Assembly: GCA_016207275.1 (NCBI GenBank)
Contig: JACQPY010000018.1
Location: 23,960-87,959 of the forward strand
From: Candidatus Kerfeldbacteria bacterium
Lineage (GTDB): Bacteria; Patescibacteriota; Patescibacteriia; SBBC01
Length of the DNA stretch: 64,000 bases
Direction: 5' to 3'
The position numbers and the translations under genes are program-made. The notes under the pieces are model-generated. The model was not told the origin of the DNA. It saw only the letters and a program-made list of their open reading frames with translations, and did no database searches. Shown in pieces: positions 15,848-62,587 of this stretch. The first letter of the stretch is position 1; each line of letters opens with the position of its first letter.

Positions 15848-15869
15848 CTCTGAGCGCAGCCTCCCTGCC

Positions 15870-23664: not shown

Positions 23665-23696
23665 CGCTCGGGGTATCAGTCCTTTCGGGCTTTCGG

Positions 23697-23750: not shown

Positions 23751-24263
23751 ACGATCATAATCAGCGTTTGGCCTGTCTCGTCAGGAAACGCAGCTGGCGG
23801 GCCAAGTTCATCTATAAGTTTTTTTGAATTTTTGATTCGGTCGCTGACAGAAATATGTTATTCGCACGGACGGGCTGACCTCCAGTTTTCAGTCATAAAA
23901 TTCCTTAAAATATCAAACTCGCTGCAGGTGAGTCCGGCGTCCTTCCCCCAACCTACTCTGCTACCACCTCCGCCCTCTCCATCAACCACGCCAAAGTCAT
24001 AATTTTTGAGCAATCACCTAAATGTAGCTCTACTTACTAAGTCGAATATTTCTGCATTGTTTCTAAAGGCCTCTAGCAGTTTAAGGTTGATTGTCCCTTC
24101 GGGATAATTAGTTTTTTCTTGAATCATTATCAGCTCAACCGTGGCCATAAGAAAGTCGCTGGAATATTCTCCATATTTATTCAAGTCTTCATACTCTTTT
24201 AGGTTGACTTTGGTGAAGAACTGGAATTCAGGCGGATATTTTTTCGAGGGTTGAATTTTCTGG

Positions 24264-24452
24264 TCAAGTTATTTCCTCGGTCAAATCTTCTGATAGGTCT
24301 TCCAATAACCACTTACGTCCACATTGACAACTTCGCATATAAGAATTTTGGTATTGCCCGCCAATTAACTTCAATACTACTTCTCTTCCGCATCCGCAGG
24401 TTATTGACTTGATTTGATTGTATGAATCACGCATTCGATCAACACTTTTCAA
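24264..24452 (-). CDS. Small zinc-ribbon protein (possibly the 5' part of a frameshifted gene continuing to ~24010)
   Basis: CGCG...CQCG gives two CxxC pairs. It lies in the AT-rich islet, and an ATG-less ORF follows in another frame. Confidence 0.3.
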   Translation of the reverse strand: MKSVDRMRDSYNQIKSITCGCGREVVLKLIGGQYQNSYMRSCQCGRKWLLEDLSEDLTEEIT

Positions 24453-24456
24453 TTAA

Positions 24457-25203: not shown

Positions 25204-25246
25204 ATTTGAAAATTGACAATAACATCAACACCCTTACTCTTTTGTC

Positions 25247-25435
25247 TCATTCGCTCTTATTGACGCTTACCTGCCGACCGGCATGAACAGTAAACCCGCC
25301 GTTTGAAAGATGGTACGGCGGGTCAGCAAAAATCATGTCCACCGAGTTCTCTTTGAGAAGCGGAAGTATCTTTAAACAACCACCACGATACAAAGTAAAC
25401 CGCTTGTCCTCATCTTGATAGCTGGGTCTTATCAT
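25247..25435 (-). pseudogene. N-terminal fragment of a DNA (N6-adenine/N4-cytosine) methyltransferase
   Basis: SVDMIFADPPY is the catalytic motif IV (DPPY), found in a 62-codon ORF that then terminates. Confidence 0.6.
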
Positions 25436-25520
25436 TTTGCGCTTGTATGACTCCCTGTTGATATCTTACCCGAAGAAAAACCGAATGTCAATTTATGCGA
25501 AATTGTGAAGCTCCATGTCC

Positions 25521-25608
25521 CCACGGCCGTGGTTTCTCTCGATACGTGGTTCCGTGGAGCGAAACCCCGCATCCGCCCCGAGCAATGTCGAGGGGCTGGT
25601 GCGTGGGT
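25521..25608. repeat. Family-2 element copy C (with the conserved upstream hairpin block)
   Basis: ccacggccgtgg...ggttccgtggagcgaaACCCCGCATC-cgccccgag..tcgaggggc-TGGTGCGTGGGTAA. It marks the right edge of the AT-rich islet. Confidence 0.6.
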
Positions 25609-25684
25609 AAGGATTTACTACTCTATGGTACGAGTTTTCCACACCAAAATCAAGAAAAAATCGCGGAAAGCTACAGACTAGCCA

Positions 25685-27181: not shown

Positions 27182-29206
27182 TTACTTCAGGCGGACGGCG
27201 CGAATCAAATCGTTGATCTGATCGGCGACCAGCAGGTAGGTCGAGGTCAGCATCACCATGCCGCGGGGGTTATGGAACGTCGCCACGGTCGCCGCGCCAT
27301 CGGTACTGCCGCGTGAACCCGTCCCCGCCACCAAACTGATAGTCTGCCGGGCGAGGTCGATCCGCCGAATGCGCTGACCACCGATCTCGCTGACGAATAA
27401 GGTATTTTTCGTTCCCAGGGCTAACGAATCGGGCAGGCTCAGCCGCGCCGCAGGCAGTGACCCATTGCGATACCCGGCTTTTCCGGTTCCAACCAGCGTC
27501 GTCACCAACTTCGTCTTCAGATGAACGACGCGAATGGCGTGGTTGTCCTGGTCGACCACGTAGAGCTTCTTTCCATCAGGACTGAGCTGGAGCGCCACCG
27601 GCGTGTTGAACTGCGCGGCCGAGCCAACGCCGTTCTTGAAGCCGACCGTCCCGCCGGCGATGAGACGCGTCCGGCCGGTCCGCAGGTCGTAGGACCGAAT
27701 GCGGTGATTCTCCGTATCGGCTACGTAGATAAGGTTGCCGCCACGGGAAATGGCAATACCCATCGGCCGGTTGAAGTAGGCGCAGCCGGCCACGGCCCGA
27801 TTCATTTCCAACGGACAGCCACGTCCTTCAGCGTAGCCATTGTTATCACCGGCAAACTGGTTGACCGCCCCGGCACCGGCCAGGGTCGTCATTCGCTGGT
27901 CGGCCACGGCCAGCACGCGAATGCGGTTGTTGTTGCGGTCGGCGAAATAGAGCTTGGTGCCGTCCGGCGAACTGACCATCTGCGTGGCGCCGCTCAGTCG
28001 CGCCTCGTCGCCGACGCCGTCGCGCCAGTTGTCATTGGCGTGTCCGGCCAGCAGGCGGAGCGTCTTGGTCTTCAGCGTAAACTCTTTTATCTTCTGATTC
28101 TCCAGCAGGTAGACTTTGGACCGGTCTTTCGATACGACCAGCGACTTCGGCCGACCAAGCACGGCTGACCGCCAAAAACCATCTTGATCGCCGTAGCGGT
28201 GCTGGCCGGCGATTCGTTCGGCGTTGGTGCCGTCGACGTTCAACCGAAAAACGCTCGATCCGGACGAGAAGAGCAGGTACATTTTGTCGTTGCAGAACAG
28301 GATGTCCGAGGCATGGTTGTACCACTCGGTTTCCGGCACATTGGCGATGCGGGTGATGATCCCGACGGCTGGATCGTACTTCCAGATCTCGTTATGTATT
28401 CCCTTTGGTCCGGCGACCACGTAGACCTGTCCGTTGTAGACGGCCACGCCTTCAGCGTTTTCCAGATCAGTCTTGATCGACACGATGGTACCGGTTGAAA
28501 TACTGACCTTCGAAAAGCTGGTGCTGTTGTGCACCACGTACAGCGTGTCGCCGGACACGGCCAGCTTCCATGGTCGGGTGATGGTGGCCACGAGCTGCGC
28601 CAAGCCGTCTGGCGTCGTGGCTTTGAGAATGCGGTTGTTGTTGGTGTCGGCAATGTAGGCGGTGGTCCCGTCGATGGTTATGCCGGCCGGCCGCTTCAGT
28701 CCGCTCAGCCAGGTGCTGATTGTGCTGTCAGTTATAATCCGAATCCGGTCGTTCTCGGTGTCGGCCACGTACAACCGACCATCAGCGCCCCGGTCAATGT
28801 CGTACGGCGCGCGAAACGTGGCGTTTAAGGCCACGCCGTCATCGTGGCGGTAGGCGCCGGTGCCGGCCAAGCGCGTGATGACATTGGTGCTGACCGTAAT
28901 CTTCCGCACCATGTTGTTCATGGTGTCGGCCAAGGTCAGGTTGCAGCTGGCATCGGCCACAAAACCATTCGGATTATCGAGAAAGGCATCCCGCGCATCA
29001 ACGCCCTCGCCAGCGAATAGCTGCCCAAACCAGGTCGTGGTCGTGCCGGTCAGGTGTTTGGCCTGGACGGTGAGGGGAGCGAAAAGACCAACCAGCAACA
29101 GCCACGTGCTGAGGCCAGCAATCAAACGCAATCGTATCATCCTCCTACGTACGCCAGTCATATTTTTGCGATTCACACTATACCACACTATGGTAGAGGG
29201 AGACAA
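27182..29206 (-). CDS. Secreted NHL-repeat beta-propeller protein (paralog 1)
   Basis: Signal/TM N-terminus and repeated YVADTENHRIR / YFADRNNNRIRV NHL motifs. It is a tandem paralog of the next gene. Confidence 0.8.
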   Translation of the reverse strand: MSPSTIVWYSVNRKNMTGVRRRMIRLRLIAGLSTWLLLVGLFAPLTVQAKHLTGTTTTWFGQLFAGEGVDARDAFLDNPNGFVADASCNLTLADTMNNMVRKITVSTNVITRLAGTGAYRHDDGVALNATFRAPYDIDRGADGRLYVADTENDRIRIITDSTISTWLSGLKRPAGITIDGTTAYIADTNNNRILKATTPDGLAQLVATITRPWKLAVSGDTLYVVHNSTSFSKVSISTGTIVSIKTDLENAEGVAVYNGQVYVVAGPKGIHNEIWKYDPAVGIITRIANVPETEWYNHASDILFCNDKMYLLFSSGSSVFRLNVDGTNAERIAGQHRYGDQDGFWRSAVLGRPKSLVVSKDRSKVYLLENQKIKEFTLKTKTLRLLAGHANDNWRDGVGDEARLSGATQMVSSPDGTKLYFADRNNNRIRVLAVADQRMTTLAGAGAVNQFAGDNNGYAEGRGCPLEMNRAVAGCAYFNRPMGIAISRGGNLIYVADTENHRIRSYDLRTGRTRLIAGGTVGFKNGVGSAAQFNTPVALQLSPDGKKLYVVDQDNHAIRVVHLKTKLVTTLVGTGKAGYRNGSLPAARLSLPDSLALGTKNTLFVSEIGGQRIRRIDLARQTISLVAGTGSRGSTDGAATVATFHNPRGMVMLTSTYLLVADQINDLIRAVRLK

Positions 29207-29262: not shown

Positions 29263-31269
29263 TTACTTTGGGAGCTTGATCAGCCGAATGAGGTCGTTGA
29301 CGACGTCAGCCACCAAGAGTGTCTTGGCGGACAGCAAGACCATGCCCTTCGGGTTGTTAAACGTCGCTTTATCAGCCCGGCCGTTAGCGCTCCCGCGTTG
29401 ACCAGAGCCGGCCACCAGCGAAATCTCTTTTTTCTTGAGGTCAAGTTGCCGAATCCGCTGCGAGCCGACTTCGGAAAGTAAAATGGTATTGCTATTTGGC
29501 CCGAACGCGAGCGAGTCGGGGAAGGAGAGGCGAGCTTTCTTAAACGTTCCCTCTCGATATCCAGCCTTACCAGTGCCGACCAGCTTAGTGACGCGCTTGG
29601 TGGCCAGATCAATCTTGCGAATGGCCTGGTTGCCGGAATCGATGACGTACAGCGTTTTCCCGTCCTGGCTTAGCAGGATGCTGGTCGGACCCTTGAACCG
29701 GGCGGCCGAGCCGACGCCGTTCTTAAATCCCTTCTCGCCGCCAGCCAGCAGGGCGGTGGCGCCAGTCGCTACGTTGACCGTTCGGATACGCTGGTTGTCG
29801 CCGTCGCTGACGTAGAGCGTCTTGCCGTCGCCTGAGATGGCAATGCCGTGCGGCCGGTCGAAGTACGCACATCCAGTAACGCCTTTGTCGGTCGTTGAGC
29901 AGGCCGCTCCCTCGGCGTAGCCGTTGCGTTCACCGGCAAACTGGTTGATCGCCCCGGCGCCGGTTAGCGTTTCCAGACGGGCTTCGTCGATGATCAGCGA
30001 ACGAATACGGTTGTTATTTTTATCGGCAAACCAGATCCGTTTCCCGTCGGGCGACAGGACCGCCTGATTCGGTCCGCTGGTCCGCGCCTGATTGCCGACG
30101 TTATCCCGCCAGTTGTCCATCGGGCTGCCGGCGATGAAGGACAACTTCTGGGTGGCAAAATCAAATACCTTGAAGCGATGGTTTTCGACGATGTAGAGCT
30201 TATCTTTATTCTTGGACAAGATCAGCACCTTCGGCCGACCGAGCACCAAGTCGCTGACCCCGCCGTCGGTATCGCCGTACCGGTGAATGCCGGCGATCTT
30301 TACGGGATTCGTCCCATCGGGCTCGAGCCGGAAGATGCTCGATCCCGAAGAGAACAGGAGGTACATCTTGTCTTTGCAGAAGAGGATGTCCGAGGCATGG
30401 TTGTACCATTCAGTCTCGACGACGCGGATAAGCATGACGATCTCGCCGGTCGCCGGATCGTAACGCCAGATTTCGTTGTACATGCCGCGATCGCTCGCAA
30501 CGAAGTAGATCTTATCGTTGTACGCAGCAACGCCCTCGAGGTCGGTGAGTCCGTCCTTGATCGTTGTCGTCTCGCCGGTTGACGGATTGACTTTTGCTAA
30601 TGCCGTGTTGTCGAGGTATGTTACGTACAGCGTCGAACTCGAAGCACCAGTGGGCATGACCGAAATCATCCCGTTTGGATGTACAAGGTTCGTCACTACC
30701 GTCGGACTGCCGTTCGGAGCGGTTGCTTTGACAATACGGTTATTCCCGGTGTCGCTGACGTAGAGCGTCGAACCGTCAATGGCGCTTCCCTTCGGTCGCT
30801 TGAGGTTTTTGAGCCACGTGGAGACGACACCGTCTCGAAGGATTCGCACGGCCCCGTTCTCCGTGTCGGTGATAAAGACTTCCCCGCTCGGTCCAAGCTC
30901 GACGTCGCTCGGCCAGCGGAACGAGGATGAGGCTGCCGCGCCGTCTTTCAACAGGAAGTGGCCGTTCCCGGCGATGGTCGACATGACGTTCGTGGTCCCG
31001 TCGACGCGGCGGATGACGTTGTTGAGCGTATCGGCGATGGTGAAGGTACAATTCGCATCAGCGACAAAGCCCTCAGGATTGTCGAGGTAAGCGCTGTTTG
31101 CCTCCACCCCATCACCGGCGTAGAGCCGGCCAAGGAAAGTACTGACCGTGCCGTACTTCTTCTTGGCCTTTTTAGTCGCGGCCTCGGCCGACGCCGGTAC
31201 CACAAGCAGCCCCACGGTCATCAAGGCGAGCAGTGGAACGGCAATGAAGCGGAGTGTGCGTGTTTTCAT
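29263..31269 (-). CDS. Secreted NHL-repeat beta-propeller protein (paralog 2)
   Basis: Shares long identical blocks (ETEWYNHASDILFC.DKMYLLFSSGSS.FRL) with paralog 1. Confidence 0.8.
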   Translation of the reverse strand: MKTRTLRFIAVPLLALMTVGLLVVPASAEAATKKAKKKYGTVSTFLGRLYAGDGVEANSAYLDNPEGFVADANCTFTIADTLNNVIRRVDGTTNVMSTIAGNGHFLLKDGAAASSSFRWPSDVELGPSGEVFITDTENGAVRILRDGVVSTWLKNLKRPKGSAIDGSTLYVSDTGNNRIVKATAPNGSPTVVTNLVHPNGMISVMPTGASSSTLYVTYLDNTALAKVNPSTGETTTIKDGLTDLEGVAAYNDKIYFVASDRGMYNEIWRYDPATGEIVMLIRVVETEWYNHASDILFCKDKMYLLFSSGSSIFRLEPDGTNPVKIAGIHRYGDTDGGVSDLVLGRPKVLILSKNKDKLYIVENHRFKVFDFATQKLSFIAGSPMDNWRDNVGNQARTSGPNQAVLSPDGKRIWFADKNNNRIRSLIIDEARLETLTGAGAINQFAGERNGYAEGAACSTTDKGVTGCAYFDRPHGIAISGDGKTLYVSDGDNQRIRTVNVATGATALLAGGEKGFKNGVGSAARFKGPTSILLSQDGKTLYVIDSGNQAIRKIDLATKRVTKLVGTGKAGYREGTFKKARLSFPDSLAFGPNSNTILLSEVGSQRIRQLDLKKKEISLVAGSGQRGSANGRADKATFNNPKGMVLLSAKTLLVADVVNDLIRLIKLPK

Positions 31270-38259: not shown

Positions 38260-38643
38260 CTATTCCAGCAGTCTTTTCCTAAATGCTGATAATTGATTTC
38301 CAAGTTCTGCCGCGCTCGACAGTACTTCATCGCGTTCTTGGTGGGTGAGGCAGCCACAATCAACAGCCACATCACAACAGGCAACAACTTCATTCAAAGA
38401 GGCTAGTGCATAATTAAGAAAGAGCGCAAAATCCTTGTCCGAACTTCGATTCGATCCTTCGGCAATGTTGAGGACGATTGAGTTTGCTGCCCGCAGCAAC
38501 TGCGCCGTAAGAATGTATCTCTCACCATCCGGAAATGATCGCGCGTAACGACGAACGTGACTGACAAATTGTCGTGCTAACTGGTAGACGGTGAATTTTC
38601 TAAATCGAAACTTTCTATCGATATCAAATACCATTCTGGTCAA
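38260..38643 (-). CDS. Four-helix-bundle protein (23S rRNA intervening-sequence protein family)
   Basis: YILTAQLLRAANSIVLNIAEG ... LASLNEV is diagnostic for this family. Confidence 0.75.
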   Translation of the reverse strand: MTRMVFDIDRKFRFRKFTVYQLARQFVSHVRRYARSFPDGERYILTAQLLRAANSIVLNIAEGSNRSSDKDFALFLNYALASLNEVVACCDVAVDCGCLTHQERDEVLSSAAELGNQLSAFRKRLLE

Positions 38644-38665
38644 ATGTCAATTGTCAAATGTTATT
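38636..38665. repeat. TTGAC x3 array (right flank of the four-helix-bundle gene)
   Basis: ggtcaaatgtcaattgtcaaatg reads as TTGACAATTGACATTTGACC on the gene strand, directly upstream of the ATG. Confidence 0.5.
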
Positions 38666-39498
38666 TTTTGCCCGTCACTCGTCATCACCACGTCGCCGTC
38701 TTCATCCGTCCGTAACATTTTCGCCCCGCGCTTGTTGTACCGCCGCAGCACTACCGGGTGCGGATGGCCGTAGCGATTGTCCTGGCCCACGGAAATGACT
38801 GCCGCGGCAGGCTTGAGCGCATCTAAAAACTCCTCGCTCGACGACGAAATACTCCCGTGGTGCGGAACTTTCAAAACTTCGACGTCGGGCAACGTGCCGG
38901 TCAGCACCAGCCGCTGCTCAACGTCGGCACTGATGTCGCCGGTCAACAGCACGTCAGTCTCGCCGTACTGGACGTGCAGAACGACCGACGTGTCGTTGCG
39001 CAGTTTGGCATCGGCCGCGACCGCTGTTGGCGGCCACAGCACCTTCAGTGCAACCCCACCGACATCGAGCCGATAATTACCGATTGCTTCCAGGCGTTGC
39101 GCGCGCTGAGCGTCAATGGCGGCTTCCCAGGATCGATCGGCCAAGCTGTCGCTGCGGACCGCCGTTTCCAGAACGCGTTCGATCTTAAAGTGTTCAGCGA
39201 CGGCTGGTAAGCCACCGACGTGGTCTGCGTCAGGGTGGGTCAGGACCACGAGCTCCAGCGTCCGATCAGACGGCGGCAGGTACTCCGACAGTCGCTCAAC
39301 TACGCGTCCATCAGGACCACCATCAACCAGCACATCGCTGCCATCCGGTGTTTGCAGCAAAATGGCATCGCCCTGCCCAACGTCCAGCACCACCATTCGA
39401 AAAGCCGGGTCGGATCGCGGCCCGACCCACAGCGCCAGGGCCAGGGCGCAGGCCACCATCAGGAATGCTACCCGAATGACCAGGTTACGTTGCGACAT
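38647..39498 (-). CDS. comEC: ComEC/Rec2 C-terminal metallo-beta-lactamase domain
   Basis: VLDVGQGDAILL ... LTHPDADHVGG ... PHHGS. It forms a separate ORF with a 14-nt overlap on the upstream ORF. Confidence 0.75.
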   Translation of the reverse strand: MSQRNLVIRVAFLMVACALALALWVGPRSDPAFRMVVLDVGQGDAILLQTPDGSDVLVDGGPDGRVVERLSEYLPPSDRTLELVVLTHPDADHVGGLPAVAEHFKIERVLETAVRSDSLADRSWEAAIDAQRAQRLEAIGNYRLDVGGVALKVLWPPTAVAADAKLRNDTSVVLHVQYGETDVLLTGDISADVEQRLVLTGTLPDVEVLKVPHHGSISSSSEEFLDALKPAAAVISVGQDNRYGHPHPVVLRRYNKRGAKMLRTDEDGDVVMTSDGQKITFDN

Positions 39499-40654
39499 GC
39501 CGCTTCCTCGTTATCGTGACGTACCAACCAATGGCCAGGGCATTGACGGATGCGGCCGCGGCGCTGGCCTGCCAACCGAGCTGAACCGCCGCGATCGGCA
39601 GTGCGGCGCCAAACGTCACCACCCAGACCATCGCCCGCAGCGGTAACCACGCCAGCCAGCCGACCAACACTGCCAGCCACGGCGCCAGAGCGGTCAGCAC
39701 CGCCACCGCAAAGCCGGTCAGCATGGCCGGCGGGATCAAAGGCAGTACCACGACGTTGACTAGGGGTGCTACCAGCGACACCTGCCCGAAGTACAGTAAA
39801 ATCAACGGCTGCGTAAACATGATGGCCGCCAGCGTCGAGGCTAGTGAGCTCCGCAAGCCAAAGACGGTTGACACGAAGGTTAACCGCTGTTCCAACGGTT
39901 CGGCCAGCAGCACCAAAGCGGCAGTCGCCACGACGGACAGCTGAAAGCTCAAGCTCGTGATGATGACTGGCTGGATCACAACCATGCTGGCCGCGCTCAG
40001 GACCAGCAGATGCCAACCGTCAGCCAGCCGACCACTGTACCGCGCCAGCACCACCAGCGATCCCATAATCCCAGCCCGGACAACCGAGGGCGACGCACCG
40101 GTGAGAATGACGAAGGCGGCCACGGCCAGAATCGTGACCAACAACTGCATGGCGCGACCCAACGGCATCGATCTGATGATGGCGGCCACCGCACTGACCA
40201 CGATGGTGACGTTGAAGCCTGAAACTGCCACGATGTGGCTGGTGCCCGTAGTCCGAAAGGCTTGGAGTAAGTTGCGCGGTAGGTCTTCGCGTCCGCCGAG
40301 CAGCAAGCCAGTCAGCAAGGCCGCCTCAGTCGGCGGCAGCGCCTGGTTAATCCCGTGTTCTAACCACGCACGGGTTGCGGTCAGGGCAGCGATAATTGGC
40401 TGCTCATCACTGACTCCCGCTGGCGCACCCAGCAGCCACCCCCGGAGCAATCCGAGACCAAACAGCAACGGCACAAACCACCAGCGCCACCGTGCGGCGA
40501 TGGCCGTGAGTGTTGCTCCGAACACCATCCCCATCGTCGGAACAACAAAACCACCGACCGCTGCGCCAGCGGCCAGCGCCATTGCTCCGACTTGAATCCG
40601 CGTTTTCCGTGGTAACAAAATTGGTGACCAGCGGCCACCGTTTGTCTGGATCAA
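39485..40654 (-). CDS. comEC: ComEC/Rec2 N-terminal competence (TM) domain
   Basis: Multi-TM protein with FRTTGTSHIVAVSGFNVTIV, the competence-domain signature. Confidence 0.75.
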   Translation of the reverse strand: MIQTNGGRWSPILLPRKTRIQVGAMALAAGAAVGGFVVPTMGMVFGATLTAIAARWRWWFVPLLFGLGLLRGWLLGAPAGVSDEQPIIAALTATRAWLEHGINQALPPTEAALLTGLLLGGREDLPRNLLQAFRTTGTSHIVAVSGFNVTIVVSAVAAIIRSMPLGRAMQLLVTILAVAAFVILTGASPSVVRAGIMGSLVVLARYSGRLADGWHLLVLSAASMVVIQPVIITSLSFQLSVVATAALVLLAEPLEQRLTFVSTVFGLRSSLASTLAAIMFTQPLILLYFGQVSLVAPLVNVVVLPLIPPAMLTGFAVAVLTALAPWLAVLVGWLAWLPLRAMVWVVTFGAALPIAAVQLGWQASAAAASVNALAIGWYVTITRKRHVAT

Positions 40655-42618: not shown

Positions 42619-42834
42619 TCCTGTGCCTCCTTTGTCGACGAGCAGGCCGATTACCTACAACCGCGAATCAACGATACCCCAAGAGGTTCGCAGAAAGCCA
42701 CTTGAATGTCAACCAAGCCCCGCGCCAGCTGTCATCCTGACCCCGACAGATGGCGGGGGAAGGATCTCCTATGGGACTGCAGTCGAATGAGAGACTCTTC
42801 GGCTCCGCCTCATGGTGACGGCGCGGGGCGGCAC

Positions 42835-43981
42835 CTATACCCCATCCTTCCCACTCCCACGTTTCGCCTGCCCCGAGCTCTTTCGGCGGGGCCTGCCTTC
42901 ACGTTTCCAACGTAGGAACGCTTCCATAAATGACTGGAGTTCTCCATTCAACACCGCGTCCACATCGCTTGTTTCGAACTTTGTCCGATGATCCTTGACC
43001 ATCCGGTACGGCTGCAGCACGTACGAGCGAATCTGGTTGCCCCAGGCCGCTTCGGCGTACTCGCCGCGTAGCTGCTGCTTTTCTTGATGGATTTTTTCTT
43101 CTTCCAGCATCTGCAGCTTCGACTGCAGAATCTTCATCGCGGTTTCGCGATTCTGCTGCTGCGAGCGCTCGTTCTGCACAGACACCATGATTTTCGTCGG
43201 CCGGTGCACCACCCGCACGGCCGAGTACGTCGTCTGCACGCCTTGTCCGCCGTGACCGCCGGACAAAAATGTGTCAACGCGAATATCTTTCGGATCAATT
43301 TTGACTACTTCCAACTCTTCGAACTCGGGAATGACCTCGACCAGGGCGAACGACGTGTGCCGCATCTTTTCCGCGTCAAACGGCGAAATCCGGACCAGCC
43401 GGTGCACGCCGGCCTCACTCTTAAGGTAGCCGAAGGCAAACCGACCTTTGACTTCAAGCAGCACGCTCTTGATGCCGGCTTCTTGCCCCCGCGACTCGTC
43501 AATCACCCGCGTCTGCCACCCTTGCTGTTCAGCAAACCGCAGCAGCATCCGCAGCAACATCAGCGCCCAGTCTTGGGCGTCCGTGCCGCCGGTACCGGCG
43601 TGCACGGCGACAATTGCATTTTTATCGTCGTGCTTTCCCGACAGCAATATTCTAAATTCCAAATTCCGCATTCCCCCTTCCAATTCTCCCAACTGATGTT
43701 CAATGTCTTTTCGCAGTGATTCTGCCTCCGGCTCCTCCAGTACATGCGCTAAATCGGCGGCTTGCTGATTCAACCGATCCCAGATCACGATATCTTCTTT
43801 AAGCTCGCTTAGATGCCTGCTCTGCCGTTCGGCCTGCTCACGATCATCCCAAAACCCCGGCTGGCCCATCCGCTCTTCAATTTCGAGAATGGCCTGCCGT
43901 TTCTGATCCAGGTCAAAGCAAGCCGCGGGCAGAAACTATTTTCTGCCGTAGGCTGTCCAATCTTCGCGCTAAATCATTCAT
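42835..43981 (-). CDS. prfB: Peptide chain release factor 2 with a programmed +1 frameshift
   Basis: SPF and GGQ motifs are present in ORF 42835..43869. Upstream, ATG (43981) - MNDLARRLDSLRQKIVSARGLL runs into the canonical CTT TGA C shift site (~43913-43918). The +1 frame then continues DLDQKRQAILEIEERMGQPGFW. Confidence 0.85.
43913..43918 (-). promoter_or_regulatory. RF2 autoregulatory +1 frameshift site CUU UGA C
   Basis: The minus-strand sequence is ggcttgCTTTGACctgg. Confidence 0.8.
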
Positions 43982-43999
43982 ACAATTACGAAACGGCGC

Positions 44000-44045
44000 A
44001 GTCCCGCAACGTAACGAGCGGCCGCGAGTTACTGGTGCGGGGAAA
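44000..44045. repeat. Family-2 element between prfB and its first 5'-end duplicate
   Basis: GTCCCGCAAC-gtaacgagcggccgcgagttac-TGGTGCGGGGAAA. Confidence 0.55.
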
Positions 44046-44105
44046 CCCCCGTGCTTCGGAAACTTTCTTCTCAAGAATTGTCAGTCGGTCTTTTAAATCT
44101 TTCAT
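44046..44105 (-). other. Duplicate of the prfB 5' end (decoy start 2)
   Basis: Minus strand reads ATGAAAGATTTAAAAGACCGACTGACAATTCTTGAGAAGAAAGTTTCCGAAGCACGGGGG, translating MKDLKDRLTILEKKVSEARGF. This is RF2-N-terminus-like and runs into the element. Confidence 0.55.
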
Positions 44106-44118
44106 GGTACTAGCAATG

Positions 44119-44165
44119 TAACCCCGCACCGGAACGAACGCAAGTGAGTGACTGGTGCGCGGGCA
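44119..44165. repeat. Family-2 element between prfB duplicates 2 and 3
   Basis: AACCCCGCACC-ggaacgaacgcaagtgagtgac-TGGTGCGCGGG. Confidence 0.55.
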
Positions 44166-44279
44166 GCCTTCGCGACGTGTTGATTTTGTCGCGAAGGTGT
44201 TCCAAGCGCTTTACCAAATCGTGCATCATAAAAATGTTTAGGCTGTCCCGAGCGAGCGAAGCGAGTCGAGGGATAACCT

Positions 44280-44336
44280 CCGTGAACTTGTAACTTTACT
44301 TTGGAGAACTGACAGACGATCCTTTAAGTCTTTCAT
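44280..44336 (-). other. Duplicate of the prfB 5' end (decoy start 3)
   Basis: Minus strand reads ATGAAAGACTTAAAGGATCGTCTGTCAGTTCTCCAAAGTAAAGTTACA, translating MKDLKDRLSVLQSKVT. Confidence 0.5.
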
Positions 44337-44375
44337 GGCGCTGATACTACATCATTTTCCAACCAAACGCAAATG

Positions 44376-48574: not shown

Positions 48575-48629
48575 TGTTGTTTTCCTACCGATTAAAATAC
48601 CACGTCAGCGTTGCTAAAAGCAACTATCA

Positions 48630-48720
48630 CCTCCTGTCCTCCTCTTATATCAAGAGGAGGGACTTGCTAAAGGCCTGTTCGCGAGTCCTCCCTCTTCCCT
48701 GAAGAGGGAGACGGAGGGTG
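48630..48720. repeat. Family-1 composite repeat R5 upstream of DUF559 gene 2
   Basis: tcctcctctt-atatc-aagaggagga, then GACTTGCTAAAGGCC, then tcctccctcttc..gaagagggagacggagggtg. It is a direct copy of R6. Confidence 0.65.
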
Positions 48721-48781
48721 ATACACTTGACACTGCATTAAATGTCTTCTACGCTGTAGTCCGGTGGCATAACCATACAAC

Positions 48782-49192
48782 ATGCCGCCACATTTTTTAT
48801 ACAACAACCCGTCGTTTAAGCGACGACGGCAAAAGCTGCGAAACAAGTCAACACCGGCTGAACGAAAACTTTGGGGACATCTTCGAAAAAGTCAGTTGTT
48901 GGGCTTAAAGTTCCAACGGCAGTATGGGATCGGCCCGTACGTGCTTGATTTCTTTTGTCCGGAATTACGACTGGCAATTGAAGTTGACGGCGACTCACAT
49001 TTCACGCCCGACGCCCGCGCCTACGATCAGCAACGTCAACAATTCATCGAGAACGAGGATATCGCCGTGGTCAGGTTTCTCAATACCGACATTCACGAGA
49101 ATATGGATGGCGTGCTAACAAAGCTAGGCGAGGTAGTGATGTCTCTTACCACCCCTTGTTCCCCTCCTACGCTAGGAGGGGAGACTTGCTAA
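48782..49192 (+). CDS. DUF559 endonuclease-domain protein (copy 2); its C-terminal tail is encoded by repeat R6
   Basis: LWGHLRKSQLLGLKFQRQYGIGPYVLDFFCPELRLAIEVDGDSH matches DUF559. The tail ..TTPCSPPTLGGETC lies in the hairpin. Confidence 0.75.
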   Translation: MPPHFLYNNPSFKRRRQKLRNKSTPAERKLWGHLRKSQLLGLKFQRQYGIGPYVLDFFCPELRLAIEVDGDSHFTPDARAYDQQRQQFIENEDIAVVRFLNTDIHENMDGVLTKLGEVVMSLTTPCSPPTLGGETC

Positions 49193-49250
49193 AAGCCGTT
49201 AGCATATCCTCCCTCCTAGGGTAGGAGGGAGACAGAGGGTGGTACCAAAA
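49160..49250. repeat. Family-1 composite repeat R6 at the 3' end of DUF559 gene 2
   Basis: tcccctccta-cgc-taggagggga, then GACTTGCTAAAAGCC, then tcctccctcctagggtaggagggagacagagggtgg. Confidence 0.65.
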
Positions 49251-55374: not shown

Positions 55375-55600
55375 ACGTTACGAGTCAAATGTTCACTTCG
55401 ATCCTTCGACTTTGCTCATCCTTCGACAATGCTCAGGATGAGTCCCGCCGAATGGGCGACCTTTATGCACGTATCCACAGGATAGCACATCGAATGACTT
55501 GTGACTAGCGACCCGTCACATGTCATCCCTCGACGCTGCTCGGGATGACCCCGAGCGTAGTCGAAGGGTCACAGATCAAATGTCACATGTTCTCAATAAT
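55375..55600. repeat. Family-3 composite element (two catcc-hairpins, one gaccc-hairpin, flanking GTCAAATGT motifs)
   Basis: catccttcgacaatgctcaggatg, catccctcgacgctgctcgggatg and gaccccgagcgtagtcgaagggtc, followed by cacagatcaaatgtcacatg. Confidence 0.55.
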
Positions 55601-56168
55601 CAATCCCCTTGCTGGCAATAATCCCTTGGTAGTATGGATGCTTAACCATCTTCATTTCGGTCACCAAGTCACAACGCTTTAATACAGCTGGGTAGGCGCT
55701 GTGGCCGGTCATGGCCACGTGGACCAGTTTTGCTTTCGGATGCTTAGCTCGTTCGTTGAGCAACTTCGCAATCGCCGACACGGGAAAGAGTTTCTGCTCC
55801 GAGCAAGCAATGATCTCATCGAGTATCACGAGCTTGTACTTTCCTGAAAACAGCAATTGCTTTGCTTCGGCCAACGCGCTGGCTGCAGCTTGCCGGTGCT
55901 GCCGGCGAGATTTTCGGTCGCCTAAAATGCCCACAAACCCTTTGCCGCGGACGCGCACATCAACCCCTAACTTCTTCAACGTCACCCGCTCGCCTGACGG
56001 CCATTGCGCTGACTTGTAAAACTGAAAAAACAGCACGGGCCAGCCGTAGCCCGCAGCTCGCGTGGCCAAACCGACAGCCGCCGTGGTTTTTCCTTTACCA
56101 TCGCCGACGTAGGCAATGGTTAGACCGCGATCAATGGCGCGAAATTGCTTTACGGCTGATCTCTTCAT
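55593..56168 (-). CDS. Cob(I)yrinic acid a,c-diamide / cob(I)alamin adenosyltransferase (BtuR/CobA/CobO family)
   Basis: IAYVGDGKGKTTAAVGLATRAAGYGW is the P-loop region. The start is taken at MKRSAVKQF. The longer ORF-track N-terminus is rejected. Confidence 0.75.
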   Translation of the reverse strand: MKRSAVKQFRAIDRGLTIAYVGDGKGKTTAAVGLATRAAGYGWPVLFFQFYKSAQWPSGERVTLKKLGVDVRVRGKGFVGILGDRKSRRQHRQAAASALAEAKQLLFSGKYKLVILDEIIACSEQKLFPVSAIAKLLNERAKHPKAKLVHVAMTGHSAYPAVLKRCDLVTEMKMVKHPYYQGIIASKGIDY

Positions 56169-56187
56169 AGAGTACTGCGCCGACGCA

Positions 56188-56236
56188 TGCCCCGTACCGG
56201 ACTCCGAGCGAAGTCGAGGAGGACTGGTGCGGGGTA
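56188..56236. repeat. Family-2 element immediately upstream of the adenosyltransferase gene
   Basis: CCCCGTACC-ggactccgagcgaagtcgaggaggac-TGGTGCGGGGTAGG, with a TTCG core like the tRNA-Asp and prfB copies. Confidence 0.55.
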
Positions 56237-56239
56237 GGC

Positions 56240-56293
56240 AATGATCAGGCCGCGATCGATCGCCCGAAATTTTTTTGGAGCAGATTTTTTCAT
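56240..56293 (-). other. Diverged duplicate of the adenosyltransferase 5' end
   Basis: Minus strand reads ATGAAAAAATCTGCTCCAAAAAAATTTCGGGCGATCGATCGCGGCCTGATCATTGCCTAC. The real start is ATGAAGAGATCAGCCGTAAAGCAATTTCGCGCCATTGATCGCGGTCTAACCATTGCCTAC. Confidence 0.55.
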
Positions 56294-56368
56294 GATTCAC
56301 GTAATCAGCGCGGCATTCGCCGCGCTCATTAGTTTACCGTACTACCAGTCAATCAACAATCGCCACCG

Positions 56369-58042
56369 CTATGCCTCACATGCACCCTCGCACAATTTCG
56401 TCTGGCTGAATTTTTGCGCGGCGTTCGTGCTGTGCTGGTAGTACAGAGTTTTAATCCCTTTTTGCCAGGCCTGGATGTACAGATTATTAATGTCCTTGGC
56501 CGAGGTCTTCGGATTGATCATGAGATTCAGCGATTGACCCTGATCAATGTGGTACTGACGGGAAGCGGCTTGCTCGATAATCACGGCTTGGTTAATTTCC
56601 GGGAAGGTCTTAAATACCTCTTTTTCATGGTCGGTCAGGAAATCAAGATGCTGGACCGAACCGTCGCGGTCGCGAATCGAGGACCAGACCTCTTTCGTAT
56701 TTTTCCCTTTTGACTCCAGCAGCTTCGCCAGGAACGGATTCTGAATCGTGACTTTCATTTTATCGATATCCTTGACGTAACAGTTCGACCAAACCGGCTC
56801 AATGCTCTGTGACACCTGACCCAAGATAAAAGCCGAGGAGGTCGTCGGCGCGACCGCGTTGAGCGTCGTATTCCGCCGGCCGTAGCCCTCTAACAGTGAC
56901 GGTTCGCCGTATTTTTTCGCCAGTTCTTCTGAGGCGCTATAAGAACGCTCTTGAATGAAGCGAAAGATCTGTACATTCAGCTTGTTGGCTTCCAGGCTTT
57001 CGAACGGAATCATCTTTGACTGCAAGTACGAATGCCAGCCCAGCACGCCCAGCCCGAGCGCGCGGTTGGCGACCGCAAAATTATACGCCCGTTCCATAAA
57101 AAAGAAGGCTTTGCGATCTTCGTCGCGCTCGGAGTCCCGCAAGCCCTCTAACTTGGCGATGAAATCGGTCATGACCGCGTCCAGGAAATAGACCATCGTT
57201 TCGACTGCGTCGGTCTGTTTCCACTCGTCGCAATGGAGAATATTCATGGAGGACAAATCGCACACAAACGACCAGTCGGCGCGAGTCGGCAACATGATTT
57301 CCGAACACAGATTACTATGCCTGATCGTCAGCTGTTTATCCTTGTACACGTCGACCGTGTTCCGGTTGACCGTATCGGTAAAAAAGATATACGGATAGCC
57401 CATCTCGACGCGGCGCTGAAGAACCTTGGCCCAAATCCGGCGCTTGGCGCTGTCGCCGTCGACCATGGCTTGCATCCAGCTGTCCGTCACCGTCACCGCG
57501 TGCGTCAATTCCTGAATCGGGTTGCCCTCCGTGCCGATGTCGAGAAAATCCTCGATGTCCGGATGCTCGACCGGCAGATACGGCGAGAAGTGGCCGCGGC
57601 GAGTTGATCCCTGGCTGACGACGTTGACCATCGATTCGAATAAACGCATAAAGTGGACCGAGCCCGACGACGTGCCGTTGTCCGTAATCGCCGCGCCGCG
57701 CGGACGCAGTTCCCCGAAGTACCCGGCTGTCCCCCCGCCGAATTTGCTCATCATGCCGACTTCCGCCAAGACGTTCAGAATGTTTCCCATGTTGTCAGGG
57801 ATATGCGAGGCAAAACAACTGATCGGCAACCCCTTTTTCAATCCAAAGTTCGCCCAAATCGGCGTCGACAACGAGTAGAACCCTTTCGACATGTACTCAT
57901 AAAACTTGTCGGCAAAACCGGCTTGTCCGAGGATCGTTTCGGCTCGATCGGCAATGAATCGGATGCGCTCCTCCGGGGTAACGCCGGTGGTCAGATACCC
58001 TTTGTTCAGAAACTTCCGACTATTTTCGTTCAGCCAGTTCAT
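56369..58042 (-). CDS. nrdA: Ribonucleoside-diphosphate reductase large subunit (class I, short form without an ATP-cone)
   Basis: NLCSEI active-site motif and a C-terminal Cys pair. At 557 aa it lacks the N-terminal ATP-cone. Confidence 0.85.
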   Translation of the reverse strand: MNWLNENSRKFLNKGYLTTGVTPEERIRFIADRAETILGQAGFADKFYEYMSKGFYSLSTPIWANFGLKKGLPISCFASHIPDNMGNILNVLAEVGMMSKFGGGTAGYFGELRPRGAAITDNGTSSGSVHFMRLFESMVNVVSQGSTRRGHFSPYLPVEHPDIEDFLDIGTEGNPIQELTHAVTVTDSWMQAMVDGDSAKRRIWAKVLQRRVEMGYPYIFFTDTVNRNTVDVYKDKQLTIRHSNLCSEIMLPTRADWSFVCDLSSMNILHCDEWKQTDAVETMVYFLDAVMTDFIAKLEGLRDSERDEDRKAFFFMERAYNFAVANRALGLGVLGWHSYLQSKMIPFESLEANKLNVQIFRFIQERSYSASEELAKKYGEPSLLEGYGRRNTTLNAVAPTTSSAFILGQVSQSIEPVWSNCYVKDIDKMKVTIQNPFLAKLLESKGKNTKEVWSSIRDRDGSVQHLDFLTDHEKEVFKTFPEINQAVIIEQAASRQYHIDQGQSLNLMINPKTSAKDINNLYIQAWQKGIKTLYYQHSTNAAQKFSQTKLCEGACEA

Positions 58043-59627: not shown

Positions 59628-61904
59628 TCAGCCGCACTTCGAAAATCCGCAATTGTGGCACTTCATGCAGCCTTCGGCGATTTCCAGCATCGTGCCGCAG
59701 TCCGGGCAAGCCGGAGCATAGCCGGCGTTAGCCAAAGACTCTTTTTTCGTCCCATTAGTCACGATCGTCGGAGTCGAATTTCCGTTCAGTCCGAGTTCAA
59801 GCTTTTGCTGATTGCGGTTAACGTGCTTTTCAATCACCTTGCCGATGGCGTCTGGGAGCGACAGAATCTGTCCGCCGTCGTGCCAGGACACGTCCGGCCC
59901 GCGGATCCCTTTGATCTGGTCAACGATTTCTTTCGGCGAAATGCCGGAGCGGAGAGACAGTGAAATCAAACGGCAGATCGATTCAGACTGGGCCGCAAAG
60001 AACCCGCCGTTTTTGCCGATGGTGGCGAAGACCTCAAACGGCCGACCCTGTTCGTCGTCATTGACAGTGATGTAGAGTGAGCCATATGGCGTGTTCACTT
60101 TGTAGGTGGTGCCCTTCAAGTGCTCAGGCCGCTCTCGTGGACCGAAACCATTGGCGGTCTCAACTACTGGCGTCGGTTTAACCTGTCCATTGAGCACCGT
60201 TTTGCCAGTAGTCAGCACTTGTTCGTCCCGGGAGCCGTCGCGGAAGATGGTTACGCCCTTGCAGCCAAGGTCGTAGGCCAGGTCGTACACTTTCCGGACG
60301 TCTTCCTCAGTTGCTTCGTGCGGGAAGTTGACGGTCTTGGAAATCGAGTTGTCGACGTGTTCCTGGAAGGCGGCTTGCATCCGGACGTGGTCTGCCGGCG
60401 TACAGTCAGCCGCGGTCACGAACACCTTCTTCCATTTGTCCGGTACTTCGTCGAACTTCTGGATTGAGCCTTCATAGGCAATTCGTTCCATCAGCTCGGC
60501 CGAGTACCAGCCTTCGCGCTTGGCGATCTCTTCGAATTTAGGGTGGACGTAGACGAGCGCCGTGCCGTCCATGACCGTTTTGGTGAAGACCACGGCGAAC
60601 AACGGCTCGAGCCCTGAGCTGCAGTCAGCAATCATCGAGATCGTGCCGGTCGGCGCGACCGTCGTCCGAGCGACGTTGCGCATCGGCAGACCCTGCTTCT
60701 CAAACTCAGAACCGACGTAGTTCGGGAAATTGCCGCGCGTCTTCGCCAGTTCGGCTGACGCCCGAGTGGCCTCATCATTGATGAACTTCATCACCTTGCC
60801 GGCCATGTCTAAACCGGCCTTCGAATTGTACGGAATCTCCAGCTCGATCAGCACGTCGGCAAAACCCATCACGCCTAAGCCGATGCGACGGTTAGTCAAC
60901 GTCTTTTCGGCAATCTGGGCGACCGGGAAACGATTCATGTCGATCACGTTGTCCAGAAAGTGAACCGTTTCCACTGTCACCTTCTTCAGCCGGGGCCAAT
61001 CAACGCTGGCCTTGCCGGTCTTGGTCCGCTTGACGAAGTGGCCGAGGTTGATTGAACCCAAGTTGCAGGAATCGTAGCCGGCCAGCCACTGCTCGCCGCA
61101 GGGGTTGGTGGCTTCGAGCGTTTCCACATGTCGGGCCGGGTTGGTGGCGTTCGCCCGGTCGATGAACAGGACACCGGGATCGCCGGTCAGCCAAGCGTGG
61201 TGGACAAGTAAGTTCCAGACTTTACGGGGATCGAGCTGACCGGTGACCTGGCCATTGTGCGGCGCCACCAAATCGTACTGCTTCCCGGCCTGGAGGGCGT
61301 CCATGAATTTTTCGGTCACCGCCACCGAGATGTTGAAGTTCCGCATTTCGTTCAGATCTTCCTTGATCTTGATAAACTCAAGGATGTCGGGGTGGTCGAC
61401 CCGCAGCACGCCCATGTTGGCACCGCGTCGGGTGCCGCCCTGCTTGACGATGTCGGTGGCCGTATTGAAAATGCGCATGAACGAGACCGGTCCCGAAGCC
61501 ACGCCGTGCGTGGTCTTAACCAAGCTGCCCTTGGGGCGCAGGCGGGAAAAGGAAAAGCCAGTCCCGCCGCCGGACTGGTGGATGATCGCCTGGTGCTTGA
61601 GCGTTTCGAAAATGCCCTCGATCGAGTCCTCGACCGGCAAGACAAAGCAGGCCGAGAGCTGTTGGAAGTCGCGACCAGCGTTCATTAAGCAGGGCGAATT
61701 GGGTAAGAAATCGCGGCTGGCAATCAGCCGAAAGAACTGCTCCTCGAGCTTGACCACCTTGGTCGGCGTCGTTCCGTACGTGGCATCGGCCTGGGCGATG
61801 TTGTTGGCCACCCGCCGGAACATGTCGACTGGCCGCTCCGCTGGTTTGCCGTCTTTCTTCTTCAGATATCGCTTTTCCAGGACCGTAATGGCGTTGGCGC
61901 TCAT
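59628..61904 (-). CDS. nrdJ: Class II (adenosylcobalamin-dependent) ribonucleotide reductase NrdJ
   Basis: [12 protein letters not shown] active site and a C-terminal Zn-ribbon [13 protein letters not shown]. The likely start is [14 protein letters not shown] (ORF-track maximum 62120). The start is uncertain. Confidence 0.85.
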
Positions 61905-62059
61905 GTTGTCGAGGAGCGCGTCGTCGTCCTGACGCTTTCGTCCGTCAACCAGGGCGTCGGTAATAATCTCCTTAAGTTTTTGCTGGTCGATCGGCTGCTG
62001 CTGAACGAGCTTGCGTGGATGGACGGAACCGTTCATACGGGTGGTGATGCGAAATGTGG

Positions 62060-62587
62060 TTATGACTTTTTGAAACGCGACTTGTTCGATCGGCGCCGAC
62101 CGCGCTGGCCACCCCGCCACTGGCGGGGAGTCCCGCCGGGGGCGGGAAAGGACTTAAGTTCCTCCCAGAAACTCTCGGCGTCCGTGAAAGACCGGTAAAC
62201 GGAGGCGAAGCGAATGTAGGCCACGGGATCGGCCCGTTTCAACCGCTTCATGACGATTTCACCGATCTGCTCCGAGGTGATTTCGTTTCGGCCCCGCAAT
62301 TGGATGTCCCGCTCAACGATATTGACCAGGCGCTTGAAGCTGTCGTGGGTAATCGGCCGCTTTTCCAGCGCTTTCTTCAGGCCGGCTTCCAGCTTCTCGC
62401 GACTGTAGGGCTCTCGCCGGCCGTCGCGCTTAACGACGGTGAGGTTGAGAATTTCAACCTCTTCGTAGGTAGAAAAGCGGAAACCGCACTGCAGACACTC
62501 CCGGCGGCGGCGGACAGCCACCCCTTCGTTGACCAGGCGCGAATCGGTTACTTTGGTGTCAATGTTATGGCACGCGGGACAGCGCAT
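62060..62587 (-). CDS. nrdR: Transcriptional repressor NrdR
   Basis: MRCPACHNIDTKVTDSR...CLQCGFRFSTYE Zn-ribbon followed by an ATP-cone. The start is taken at the internal ATG (the ORF-track TTG extension is rejected). Confidence 0.85.
   Translation of the reverse strand: MRCPACHNIDTKVTDSRLVNEGVAVRRRRECLQCGFRFSTYEEVEILNLTVVKRDGRREPYSREKLEAGLKKALEKRPITHDSFKRLVNIVERDIQLRGRNEITSEQIGEIVMKRLKRADPVAYIRFASVYRSFTDAESFWEELKSFPAPGGTPRQWRGGQRGRRRSNKSRFKKS

Follow-up and report, generated by a model that had tools for sequence, protein, structure and literature searches.

Upstream of prfB, the gene for release factor 2 (RF2), the 64-kb stretch of Candidatus Kerfeldbacteria DNA analysed here (the window) carries three diverged copies of the first 63 nt of that gene, with ATGs at 44336, 44226 and 44105. 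Every copy is followed by a GC-rich palindromic element (PE) and then, on the 3' side of the element, by a tail of 16–21 nt, so that the minus strand reads A – degenerate PE – B – PE – C – PE – working prfB. Comparison with related genomes points to serial horizontal replacement of gene starts, in which the donor end would be fixed at the PE and the other side resolved by homology; we put the probability of this reading at roughly 0.6. The upstream copies (relics) would then be former working prfB 5' ends, each displaced by a small horizontally acquired cassette in which a PE and its tail precede the opening ~63 nt, or more, of prfB as it occurs in another lineage. The locus is made up of the following parts, in which ORF stands for open reading frame and L numbers, here and below, denote related genomes and contigs.

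44344–44349, minus strand: −10-like box TAGTAT, 7 nt 5' of the outermost relic ATG, a leaderless-type geometry
44274–44336, minus strand: relic start A, 63 nt, MKDLKDRLSVLQSKVTSSRRL (start quoted as MKDLKDRLSVLQSKVT...)
44246–44273, minus strand: PE_A, a degenerate palindrome, TCCCTCGAC..CTCGGGA
44227–44245, minus strand: tail A, 19 nt; relic ORF A ends here at a TAA, and there is one additional ATG
44164–44226, minus strand: relic start B, MHDLVKRLEHLRDKINTSRRL, with a second ATG at 44229
44122–44163, minus strand: PE_B hairpin, CCCGCGCACCAGTC...CCGGTGCGGGG
44106–44121, minus strand: tail B, 16 nt; relic ORF B ends here at a TAG, 4 nt 5' of the ATG that follows
44043–44105, minus strand: relic start C, MKDLKDRLTILEKKVSEARGF
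44003–44042, minus strand: PE_C hairpin, the palindrome between relic C and tail C
43982–44002, minus strand: tail C, 21 nt; relic ORF C ends here at a TAA, 4 nt 5' of the working ATG
43919–43981, minus strand: working prfB 5' segment, MNDLARRLDSLRQKIVSARGL-L (opening quoted as MNDLARRLDSLRQKIVSARGLL)
43912–43918, minus strand: CTT TGA C, the RF2 programmed +1 frameshift site, in the working copy only
42835–43911, minus strand: prfB body, following sister L003 from about +85 (88% amino-acid identity)

In each relic the similarity to prfB runs from the ATG through codon 21 and ends at the first base of the PE, just 5' of the position of the CTT TGA site, which the relics lack; the sequences 5' of the several ATGs, compared with one another, showed no mutual similarity. 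In the working copy an in-frame CTT TGA C follows after ~22 codons, with a Shine-Dalgarno (SD)-like AGG/GGG upstream of it, as conserved in the frameshift-bearing relatives, and the NCBI annotation of this contig (126-kb Candidatus Kerfeldbacteria metagenome-assembled genome) starts RF2 at 43981 and gives the 365-aa frameshifted product as RF2. Relics A and C are 69% identical to each other and only 44–53% identical to the working 5' end. Relic A is similar to the RF2 starts now in use in L003, L209 and L210, the closest relatives; relic B is 70% identical in nucleotides to the working start of L004, and PE_A is homologous to the element that precedes that same start. The relic ORFs of the window run through the PEs, and their stops lie within the tails, 4–11 nt 5' of the next ATG.

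The first-pass annotation of this DNA had quoted two decoy starts, two palindromes (44122–44163 and 44003–44042), the ATGs at 44336, 44105 and 43981 and the CTT TGA C site (43918–43912), and all of these are present on the minus strand at those places. The window relics score 40–46 bits on a matrix built from genuine RF2 N-termini. Both of its decoys exist, but it overlooked a third relic (ATG 44226) and the decayed first palindrome; because these intervene, the element that it set directly after the outermost decoy in fact sits after B, although the parts of its proposed order are otherwise there. Its estimate that the decoys are about 30% diverged from prfB does not agree with the identities of A and C to the real 5' end given above, and the decoy frames do not end inside the elements.

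The matrix was used, at a cut-off of 22 bits, in six-frame scans of the window and of 80 related prfB loci (roughly 600 kb), the latter over about 3 kb upstream of prfB. At 22 bits, sequences outside the five relic-array sequences (window, L004, L005, L006 and L011) gave at most one match each, which was taken as the real prfB start and checked for the nearest loci. In total, 13 relic starts were found in 7 of the 18 closest genomes (three in the window, one in L004, two in L005, three in L006, two in L011 and one each in L210 and L214), all from independent assemblies of unrelated projects and assemblers. Copy number ranged from 0 to 3 per genome, and 11 of the 18, the sister genome included, had no relics. 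More distant Patescibacteria among the 80 loci showed no prfB relics, none of the 80 had a distant relic within 3 kb upstream, and successive starts were separated by no more than about 125 nt in all 18 prfB loci. A tblastn search (word size 2) detected no further relic fragments beside other genes of the window, which leaves prfB, cobO and tRNA-Asp as the only relic-bearing loci in the 64 kb; a translated relic search around exact-arm PEs in metagenome loci returned tRNA cases only. When the exact sequences of the 344-aa RF2 ORF and of P0001 were looked up, no independent contig was recovered. L208, a Logan short-read contig from the same organism, carries the identical upstream gene and ends 4 nt past it, exactly where the relic array begins; array length may vary within the population, or the assembly graph may break there.

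Comparison of the two portions of the working gene revealed different affinities. In amino acids the window RF2 body is 88% identical to L003, 85–86% to L209, L210 and L211 and about 70% to L004 and L007–L011, whereas the working 5' 63 nt show 52% nucleotide identity to L003, 76% to L011 and 79% to L213. The breakpoint can be followed along the gene: from +1 to +84 the window matches L011 at 68 of 84 positions, and from +85 it matches L003 at 56 of 68 positions but L011 at only 41 of 68. Six of the seven closest relatives (L003, L209–L212 and L214; 81–88% amino-acid identity) have starts that are 59–68% identical to relics A and C and 38–57% identical to the working start, L213 being the exception. 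The same polarity was seen in other arrays: compared with the start of its sister L010, L004 shows 74% identity in its relic and 53% in its working start, and compared with that of its sister L007, L011 shows 77% in its relic and 63% in its working start. As judged from these sequence affinities, the comparison shows the copy fused to the gene body to be imported and the relics to be displaced native starts.

Alignment between arrays also showed what moves, namely PE, tail and 5' segment as one unit. PE_A with its tail and B aligns with the current L004 unit (81% mean column identity), PE_B with its tail and C with the current L006 unit (83%; L210 is similar), and PE_C with its tail and the working start with the current L011 unit, while to the left of these shared units the segments differ between genomes and look native to each. 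The gene start is linked to the PE upstream of it, which excludes an integron-like cassette consisting of an ORF and a downstream site. Cassettes stack, with the newest unit nearest the gene. The donor-side junction is always the first PE base. The recipient-side junctions lie at +63 (10 relics), +33 (one) and +9 (two), and CTT/CTC follows each of them in the intact gene, a rule that holds for prfB recipient sites and not for cobO or tRNA sites. The other side has no fixed junction and was resolved by homology in the conserved region past the frameshift site (about +72 to +85 in the window), and possible overlap at the joints amounts to only 1–3 nt (C or CC/CT). A fixed donor end, a variable recipient joint and a homology-resolved side together constitute the signature of one-sided, homology-anchored insertion with a hairpin-defined end.

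A comparable layout was found at cobO.

56234–56293, minus strand: cobO relic start, MKKSAPKKFRAIDRGLIIAY
56169–56233, minus strand: cobO PE (56190–56233) and 21-nt tail (56169–56189), PE/tail family as in L206
55593–56168, minus strand: working cobO (CobA/CobO/BtuR-family adenosyltransferase), MKRSAVKQFRAIDRGLTIAY-VGDGKGKTT...

L206 cobO has a matching layout at the same codon, with a PE and tail of the same family, and the closest relative has an empty site. In L206 the relic has a GC content of 0.56 and a GC content at third codon positions (GC3) of 0.74, equal to the rest of the gene, whereas the working start has values of 0.31 and 0.29. The proposal that the arrangement recurs at the adenosyltransferase gene (there called cobA) and at tRNA-Asp, and that a targeted process rather than chance is at work, is borne out; sets of complete gene, element and 5' fragment, which the first-pass annotation had suggested looking for in related genomes together with empty sites, were found at prfB, cobO and tRNA genes in independent assemblies. 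The core of its first interpretation, an element that lands in the 5' part of a gene and brings a replacement 5' end, survives in the foreign working end and native-like relics of prfB and in the composition of L206 cobO. At the annotation level, a window ORF starting at GTG 56300 continues in frame through the PE into cobO (55593–56300, 235 aa), and in L206 (261–929) gene callers predict a 222-aa fusion, P0021, of relic, PE-encoded peptide and real protein, an annotation trap which implies that PEs can be translated.

The most serious rival is an ancient array with differential loss, in which an ancestor had several units, lineages lost different ones, and no horizontal transfer took place. 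Homologous units shared between genomes are only 72–83% identical, about as diverged as the gene bodies, unit number differs among relatives, and contraction would be possible by recombination between the repeated 5' segments. However, relics kept since the split of RF2 lineages that are now 70% identical should be saturated and broken, yet 12 of the 13 relic ORFs are intact, with an internal stop in only one, and second codon positions are avoided: differences among copies numbered 96, 39 and 111 at first, second and third positions, respectively (chi-square p = 2e-8, for pairs that are not independent), an avoidance that holds even between two relics. Second-position avoidance and open relic ORFs indicate that most of the divergence arose while the copies were coding. 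A working start of GC3 0.29 in a gene of GC3 0.74, as in L206 cobO, fits such an array poorly, and so does the pair L212 (empty) and L214 (filled), which have an upstream terminator and −10 box in common and bodies that are 87% identical, yet differ by an insert in L214 (ATGAAGGAC + PE + tail + new start) and match at only 43 of 63 nt (68%) of the 5' segment; resumption of homology in L214 can be placed only between +13 and the frameshift site. Moreover, the L214 start is identical to the L210 relic at 55 of 63 positions (87%), whereas the gene bodies of these two genomes are 76% identical. We regard differential loss from an ancient array as improbable, though deserving of attention.

The tRNA-Asp locus of the window bears on two further alternatives.

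15681–15757, plus strand: old tRNA-Asp 5' part, with positions 1–22 (15681–15702), a D-loop PE (15703–15744) and old positions 23–35 (15745–15757)
15758–15859, plus strand: inserted cassette of 102 nt with the working tRNA-Asp (15773–15848) and an 18-nt inverted repeat (15762–15779/15840–15857)
15860–15959, plus strand: old tRNA-Asp 3' part, with positions 27–34 (15860–15867), an anticodon-loop PE' (15868–15919) and old positions 35–74 (15920–15959)

Without the PEs, the fragments 15681–15702, 15745–15757 (or 15860–15867) and 15920–15959 rebuild a perfect tRNA-Asp(GTC), with compensatory differences from the working tRNA in three stems, which indicates that an older gene was split in its anticodon loop by a 102-nt cassette carrying the working tRNA. 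The cassette is flanked by an 8–9 nt direct repeat, CCTCCCT(T)G; the relic-free tRNA-Asp of L010 has neither the inverted repeat nor the flanking direct repeat. Metagenome contigs with the same PE family showed a like arrangement at tRNA-His, -Cys, -Ser and -Val, the break falling either in the D arm or, within the anticodon loop, after G34. Past the displaced 3' half, the region 15960–16066 contains a third anticodon-stem-like fragment (GTCTCCCTG ... TCACGGAG) and two further palindromic elements at the same CTG|TCAC point, the remainder of that tRNA being missing.

Tandem duplication in situ with later divergence of the silent copies, whether through slippage during replication, template switching stimulated by the hairpins, or insertion of a PE that duplicated a long target, would account for tandem copies with a hairpin at every junction, for the 8–9 nt repeat around the tRNA-Asp cassette, for a 12-nt duplicated start in L214 and for the near-identical last 9–17 nt of some adjacent copies (L005 d1/real, L011 d0/real and window cobO). 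Across the prfB arrays, the last 9 nt of adjacent units match at 5–9 of 9 positions, not clearly above motif conservation, and adjacent units were not consistently more alike there than non-adjacent ones; the duplicated lengths at cassettes vary (8–9, 12, 33 and 63 nt). Against duplication in place, the gene-fused copy is foreign by phylogeny and composition and the relic is native; in addition, units including PE and tail are common to several genomes, and the silent copies show no neutral decay. We consider this origin unlikely, and the template switching in situ that had been put forward earlier is contradicted by the foreign origin of the working copy.

Similarly doubtful is the idea that the arrays are scars of integrase-driven islands or prophages that targeted the 5' part of prfB and later lost the island body. 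Integrative elements that restore the target end are well known, and the tRNA breakpoints lie in the anticodon loop, reportedly a classical integrase crossover site (Williams 2002). Integration into the 5'-distal part of tRNA genes is known as well, although it is mentioned as the less frequent case (Zhao & Williams 2002, as cited in PMC6563490). The close spacing of starts in the 18 prfB loci, without any large insert, and the lack of distant relics in the 80 scanned loci leave little room for such islands, and compact units of 100–125 nt are intact in seven genomes and conserved between them, so that the earlier description of the arrays as reduced to scars is not supported. Pfam scans of 59 ORFs found no integrase or transposase in the window, phage and plasmid collections gave no match to the prfB array region, and the PE pattern was almost absent from viral contigs (two matches).

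The expression geometry of the arrays speaks for serial replacement. A TANNNT box precedes the first-unit ATG at a spacing of 6–9 nt in 10 of 12 genomes, against 1.1 expected from shuffles (none of 5000 shuffles reached 10), and is present before no more than 2 of the 13 internal units. The stop of the relic ORF falls between −4 nt (five cases, with ATGA overlap) and +12 nt relative to the following ATG in 11 of the 13 units, and one relic ORF is fused in frame; the working prfB ATG has no SD sequence. A rival is a selected regulatory device for RF2, with the mini-ORFs and hairpins serving as leader peptides or attenuators: RF2 is autoregulated through its 5' region, and the relic ORFs are intact, run through hairpins and stop beside the next ATG, as leader peptides might. 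Nevertheless, a regulatory role is very unlikely: a device of this kind would hardly be missing from 11 of 18 close relatives and vary from none to three copies, the relics lack the CTT TGA site, and the same architecture occurs at cobO and in tRNA genes, for which a leader peptide would be meaningless. An assembly artefact (concatenated strain variants or a chimeric contig), suggested by the metagenomic source of the window and the break of L208 at the array edge, is very unlikely, since independent assemblies share the architecture at prfB (L004, L005, L006, L011, L210 and L214), cobO (L206 and L207) and tRNAs (L096, L106, L109 and L135), and since strain variants that had been collapsed or concatenated would not be expected to differ by 30–55% or to have specific elements between them.

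Several points weigh against serial replacement of gene starts. Neither an enzyme nor a full-length element that could perform the PE-side joining was identified, and the origin of the first relic–PE–start arrangement is left without explanation. The 72–83% identity between homologous units means that the transfers are old or came from unsampled donors. The 63-nt segments hold limited phylogenetic signal, the lack of independence among codon-position pairs applies here too, and GC3 within the window singles out no native copy (A 0.33, B 0.71, C 0.38, working 0.52, body 0.66). Hairpin stability is modest (DNA z-scores of about −1 to −2.7), and PE_A no longer folds. On the expression side, a sigma-70 consensus scan found no promoter in the region, the leaderless start being read from sequence only, and part of the coupling geometry could follow from the tails being short and AT-rich.

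With these reservations, serial replacement can be described as a sequence of steps. Cassettes would enter as imported DNA, comEC being encoded in the window, and would integrate in a one-sided, homology-anchored manner with the other end set by the hairpin. This might proceed by homology-facilitated illegitimate recombination following DNA uptake, or through a trans-acting hairpin- or structure-specific nuclease or recombinase. The resident promoter would remain at the outermost relic and the cassettes would bring none; the box geometry suggests a leaderless mRNA beginning at the outermost ATG and cassettes without a promoter. Ribosomes would then translate the relic ORFs through the PEs, terminate, and re-initiate at the next ATG until the working ATG is reached, yielding relic-ORF peptides such as MKDLKDRLTILEKK... 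Such a translational-coupling relay probably serves the working gene, and it would explain why the relic ORFs have stayed open. The same process would replace the start of cobO and whole tRNA genes. A more far-reaching proposal, which we offer tentatively and regard as possible rather than probable, is that the PE units are undescribed minimal, protein-less selfish elements of Patescibacteria, which home into essential, conserved genes (prfB, cobO and tRNAs) by means of the replacement they carry, spread by DNA uptake and host recombination or by a trans-acting hairpin-specific enzyme, and leave stacked fossil starts that are used as a coupled mini-ORF relay on leaderless mRNA.

Analysis of the elements themselves revealed at least nine PEs of the CCCCGCACC..GGTGCGGGG type in the window, many-copy short imperfect palindromes as in repetitive extragenic palindromic (REP) sequences. 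The same PE family occurs in contigs of low-to-moderate GC (0.34–0.57) typical of these bacteria, and many of the 120 metagenome matches to the PE pattern are chance matches in high-GC contigs. Rfam, searched with the whole window and, under permissive settings, with the tRNA region, reported only tmRNA and tRNA-Asp, the elements matching no family. The PEs fold moderately well as single-stranded DNA and are slightly more stable on the antisense strand, and their orientation always follows the gene. Some PE loops contain the motif GCGAAGC, which is not enriched in the window (17 matches, 17 expected). No conserved target motif or GTAG-like tetranucleotide was present at the PE left flank among at least 20 junctions, no Y1 (HUH) transposase or RAYT gene within the window, and no target-site duplication at simple PE insertions in relic tRNA D loops (L096, L109 and window). 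The tails are generally 13–25 nt long and G-poor. A composite element of ~105 nt (GCTCCACGG...CCGTGGAGC stem, then PE) is located at 14211–14316 and 25510–25610, with a partial copy at 23680–23750; its second half is conserved in a metagenome contig of GC 0.43 (L112), it has no Rfam match, and a structured RNA and a larger mobile element are both conceivable. Between two composite elements lies an AT-rich island (23800–25500) with a HARE-HTH (restriction-endonuclease-associated HTH) gene at 24457–25203, which looks acquired.

Other features touch prfB outside the array. A large palindrome at 42715–42893, directly 3' of prfB, has arms GCCCCGCGCC / GGCGCGGGGC of about 115 nt; compared with L003, the window has ~150 extra nt 3' of prfB and an RF2 ORF that is ~20 codons longer (...REGRPRRKSSGQAKRGSGKDGV), so an element may have changed the 3' end of prfB too. 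The prfB 5' segment (43919–43960, and its counterparts in relatives) can fold into a hairpin in which Leu-Arg codons pair with the SD-like CGNAGG before CTT TGA, with a DNA z-score of −2.6 in the window. Support across 12 genomes for a conserved hairpin sequestering the SD-like AGG was weak, and RNAalifold did not predict it; the named helix over the AGG was paired in 70% of cells, and 40 of 500 shuffles were equally good.

The window also contains genes and repeats that may be noted in their own right. In the region 38260–40654, ComEC appears as two overlapping ORFs (Competence domain 39485–40654, metallo-beta-lactamase domain 38647–39498), with a '23S rRNA intervening sequence protein' gene directly downstream (38260–38643). 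Two DUF559 (Vsr-like, homing-endonuclease-type) genes are located at 48782–49192 (plus strand) and 5870–6313. The former lies between 100-nt direct repeats, 72% identical, of a two-hairpin element (48625–48724 and 49147–49245), again a diverged duplication around an insert; the latter abuts paired hairpins at 5858–5916, and L210 has a DUF559 gene just upstream of prfB. The tmRNA gene (12110–12523, in the region 12078–12700) has a perfect 35-nt hairpin over its 5' end and is followed on its 3' side by several small hairpins, two of them with GCGAAGC, and then by a gene for a 93-aa GIY-YIG nuclease (12700–12981). Tandem paralogous NHL-repeat surface proteins, 54% identical, are encoded at 27182–29206 and 29263–31269, and two genes for the ribonucleotide-reductase large subunit (56369–58042 and 59628–62120) flank a small-subunit gene.

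If serial replacement of gene starts is correct, essential genes could be invaded by DNA in a manner not seen before and with the host surviving, the invader being a gene-less cassette of ~110 nt that exchanges a gene start or an entire tRNA. Mosaic N-termini in Patescibacteria, and odd 'extended' gene calls such as the 222-aa cobO product predicted for L206, would find an explanation, and the arrays would form a fossil record of past gene exchange among uncultured lineages. It would also define a family of hairpin elements and offer, ahead of the RF2 frameshift, a testable example of leaderless mRNAs with long relays of translational coupling. As a practical matter, gene-start and tRNA-pseudogene annotation in these genomes should be treated with caution.

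Searches of the literature turned up no account of the elements, or of such an arrangement, in Patescibacteria, and comparison with known systems revealed partial likenesses. Integrative elements restore the end of their target gene at tRNA 3' ends and, in the case of e14 and phage 21, at the 3' end of icd. As in those systems, what arrives includes a diverged version of the part that it displaces, so that the gene continues to function, and the displaced fragment is retained next to the insert; successive events can stack, and tRNA breakpoints fall in the anticodon loop. Unlike them, the prfB units are only ~100–125 nt long and encode nothing, no integrase or att arms were found, and it is the 5' end that is replaced, without a promoter; in place of a fixed core, homology resolves one side at a point that varies.

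Partial gene duplications caused by free-standing homing-endonuclease genes occur in organelle genes of fungi and algae, for example Allomyces atp6, usually with replacement of the 3' end. Intronless homing in T4-type phages (PMC2988022) belongs to the same group. The likeness lies in a foreign segment fused in frame, a resident segment left as a pseudo-fragment, the targeting of the most conserved motifs and a mosaic gene. The differences are that the 5' end is replaced here, that a palindromic element marks the junction, and that no endonuclease ORF lies in or beside the units, the DUF559/Vsr-like and GIY-YIG genes described above being elsewhere in the window.

Homology-facilitated illegitimate recombination is known from natural transformation of Acinetobacter and Streptococcus pneumoniae. 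It shares with the present case a single homologous anchor (the gene body) with a variable crossover, next to which foreign DNA is added, and it may share a non-homologous joint at short microhomology, the possible overlap being 1–3 nt; ComEC is encoded in the window. It differs in that the donor end here is constant (the first hairpin base), only three recipient positions are used, and events recur and stack.

Like REP sequences, bacterial interspersed mosaic elements (BIMEs), miniature inverted-repeat transposable elements (MITEs) and Rickettsia palindromic elements, the PEs are short, GC-rich, imperfect multicopy palindromes that can lie in transcribed or translated sequence. To our knowledge, none of these palindromes has a described association with a replacement gene end. 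In contrast to REP, BIME and MITE sequences, PEs have no GTAG-type conserved flank and no target-site duplication at simple insertions, and their orientation is invariant relative to the gene; the fixed-length target-site duplication expected of a DDE-type MITE is thus absent. With regard to IS200/IS605-derived elements, the PE orientation is constant and the hairpins are slightly more stable on the antisense strand; the PE left flanks share no motif, and adjacency to CTT/CTC is seen at prfB only. An integron cassette array is not indicated, the 5' segment being linked to the upstream PE, with no intI found.

The minimal mobile elements of Neisseria, according to the accounts in PMC3787668 and PMC1797815, are cassettes exchanged by transformation between conserved flanking genes. 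They resemble the units described here as enzyme-less cassettes that spread by host recombination with conserved flanks as homology arms. In the Patescibacteria, unlike in Neisseria, the flanks would be pieces of the target gene itself, and the cargo would be a replacement for the gene that the cassette interrupts.

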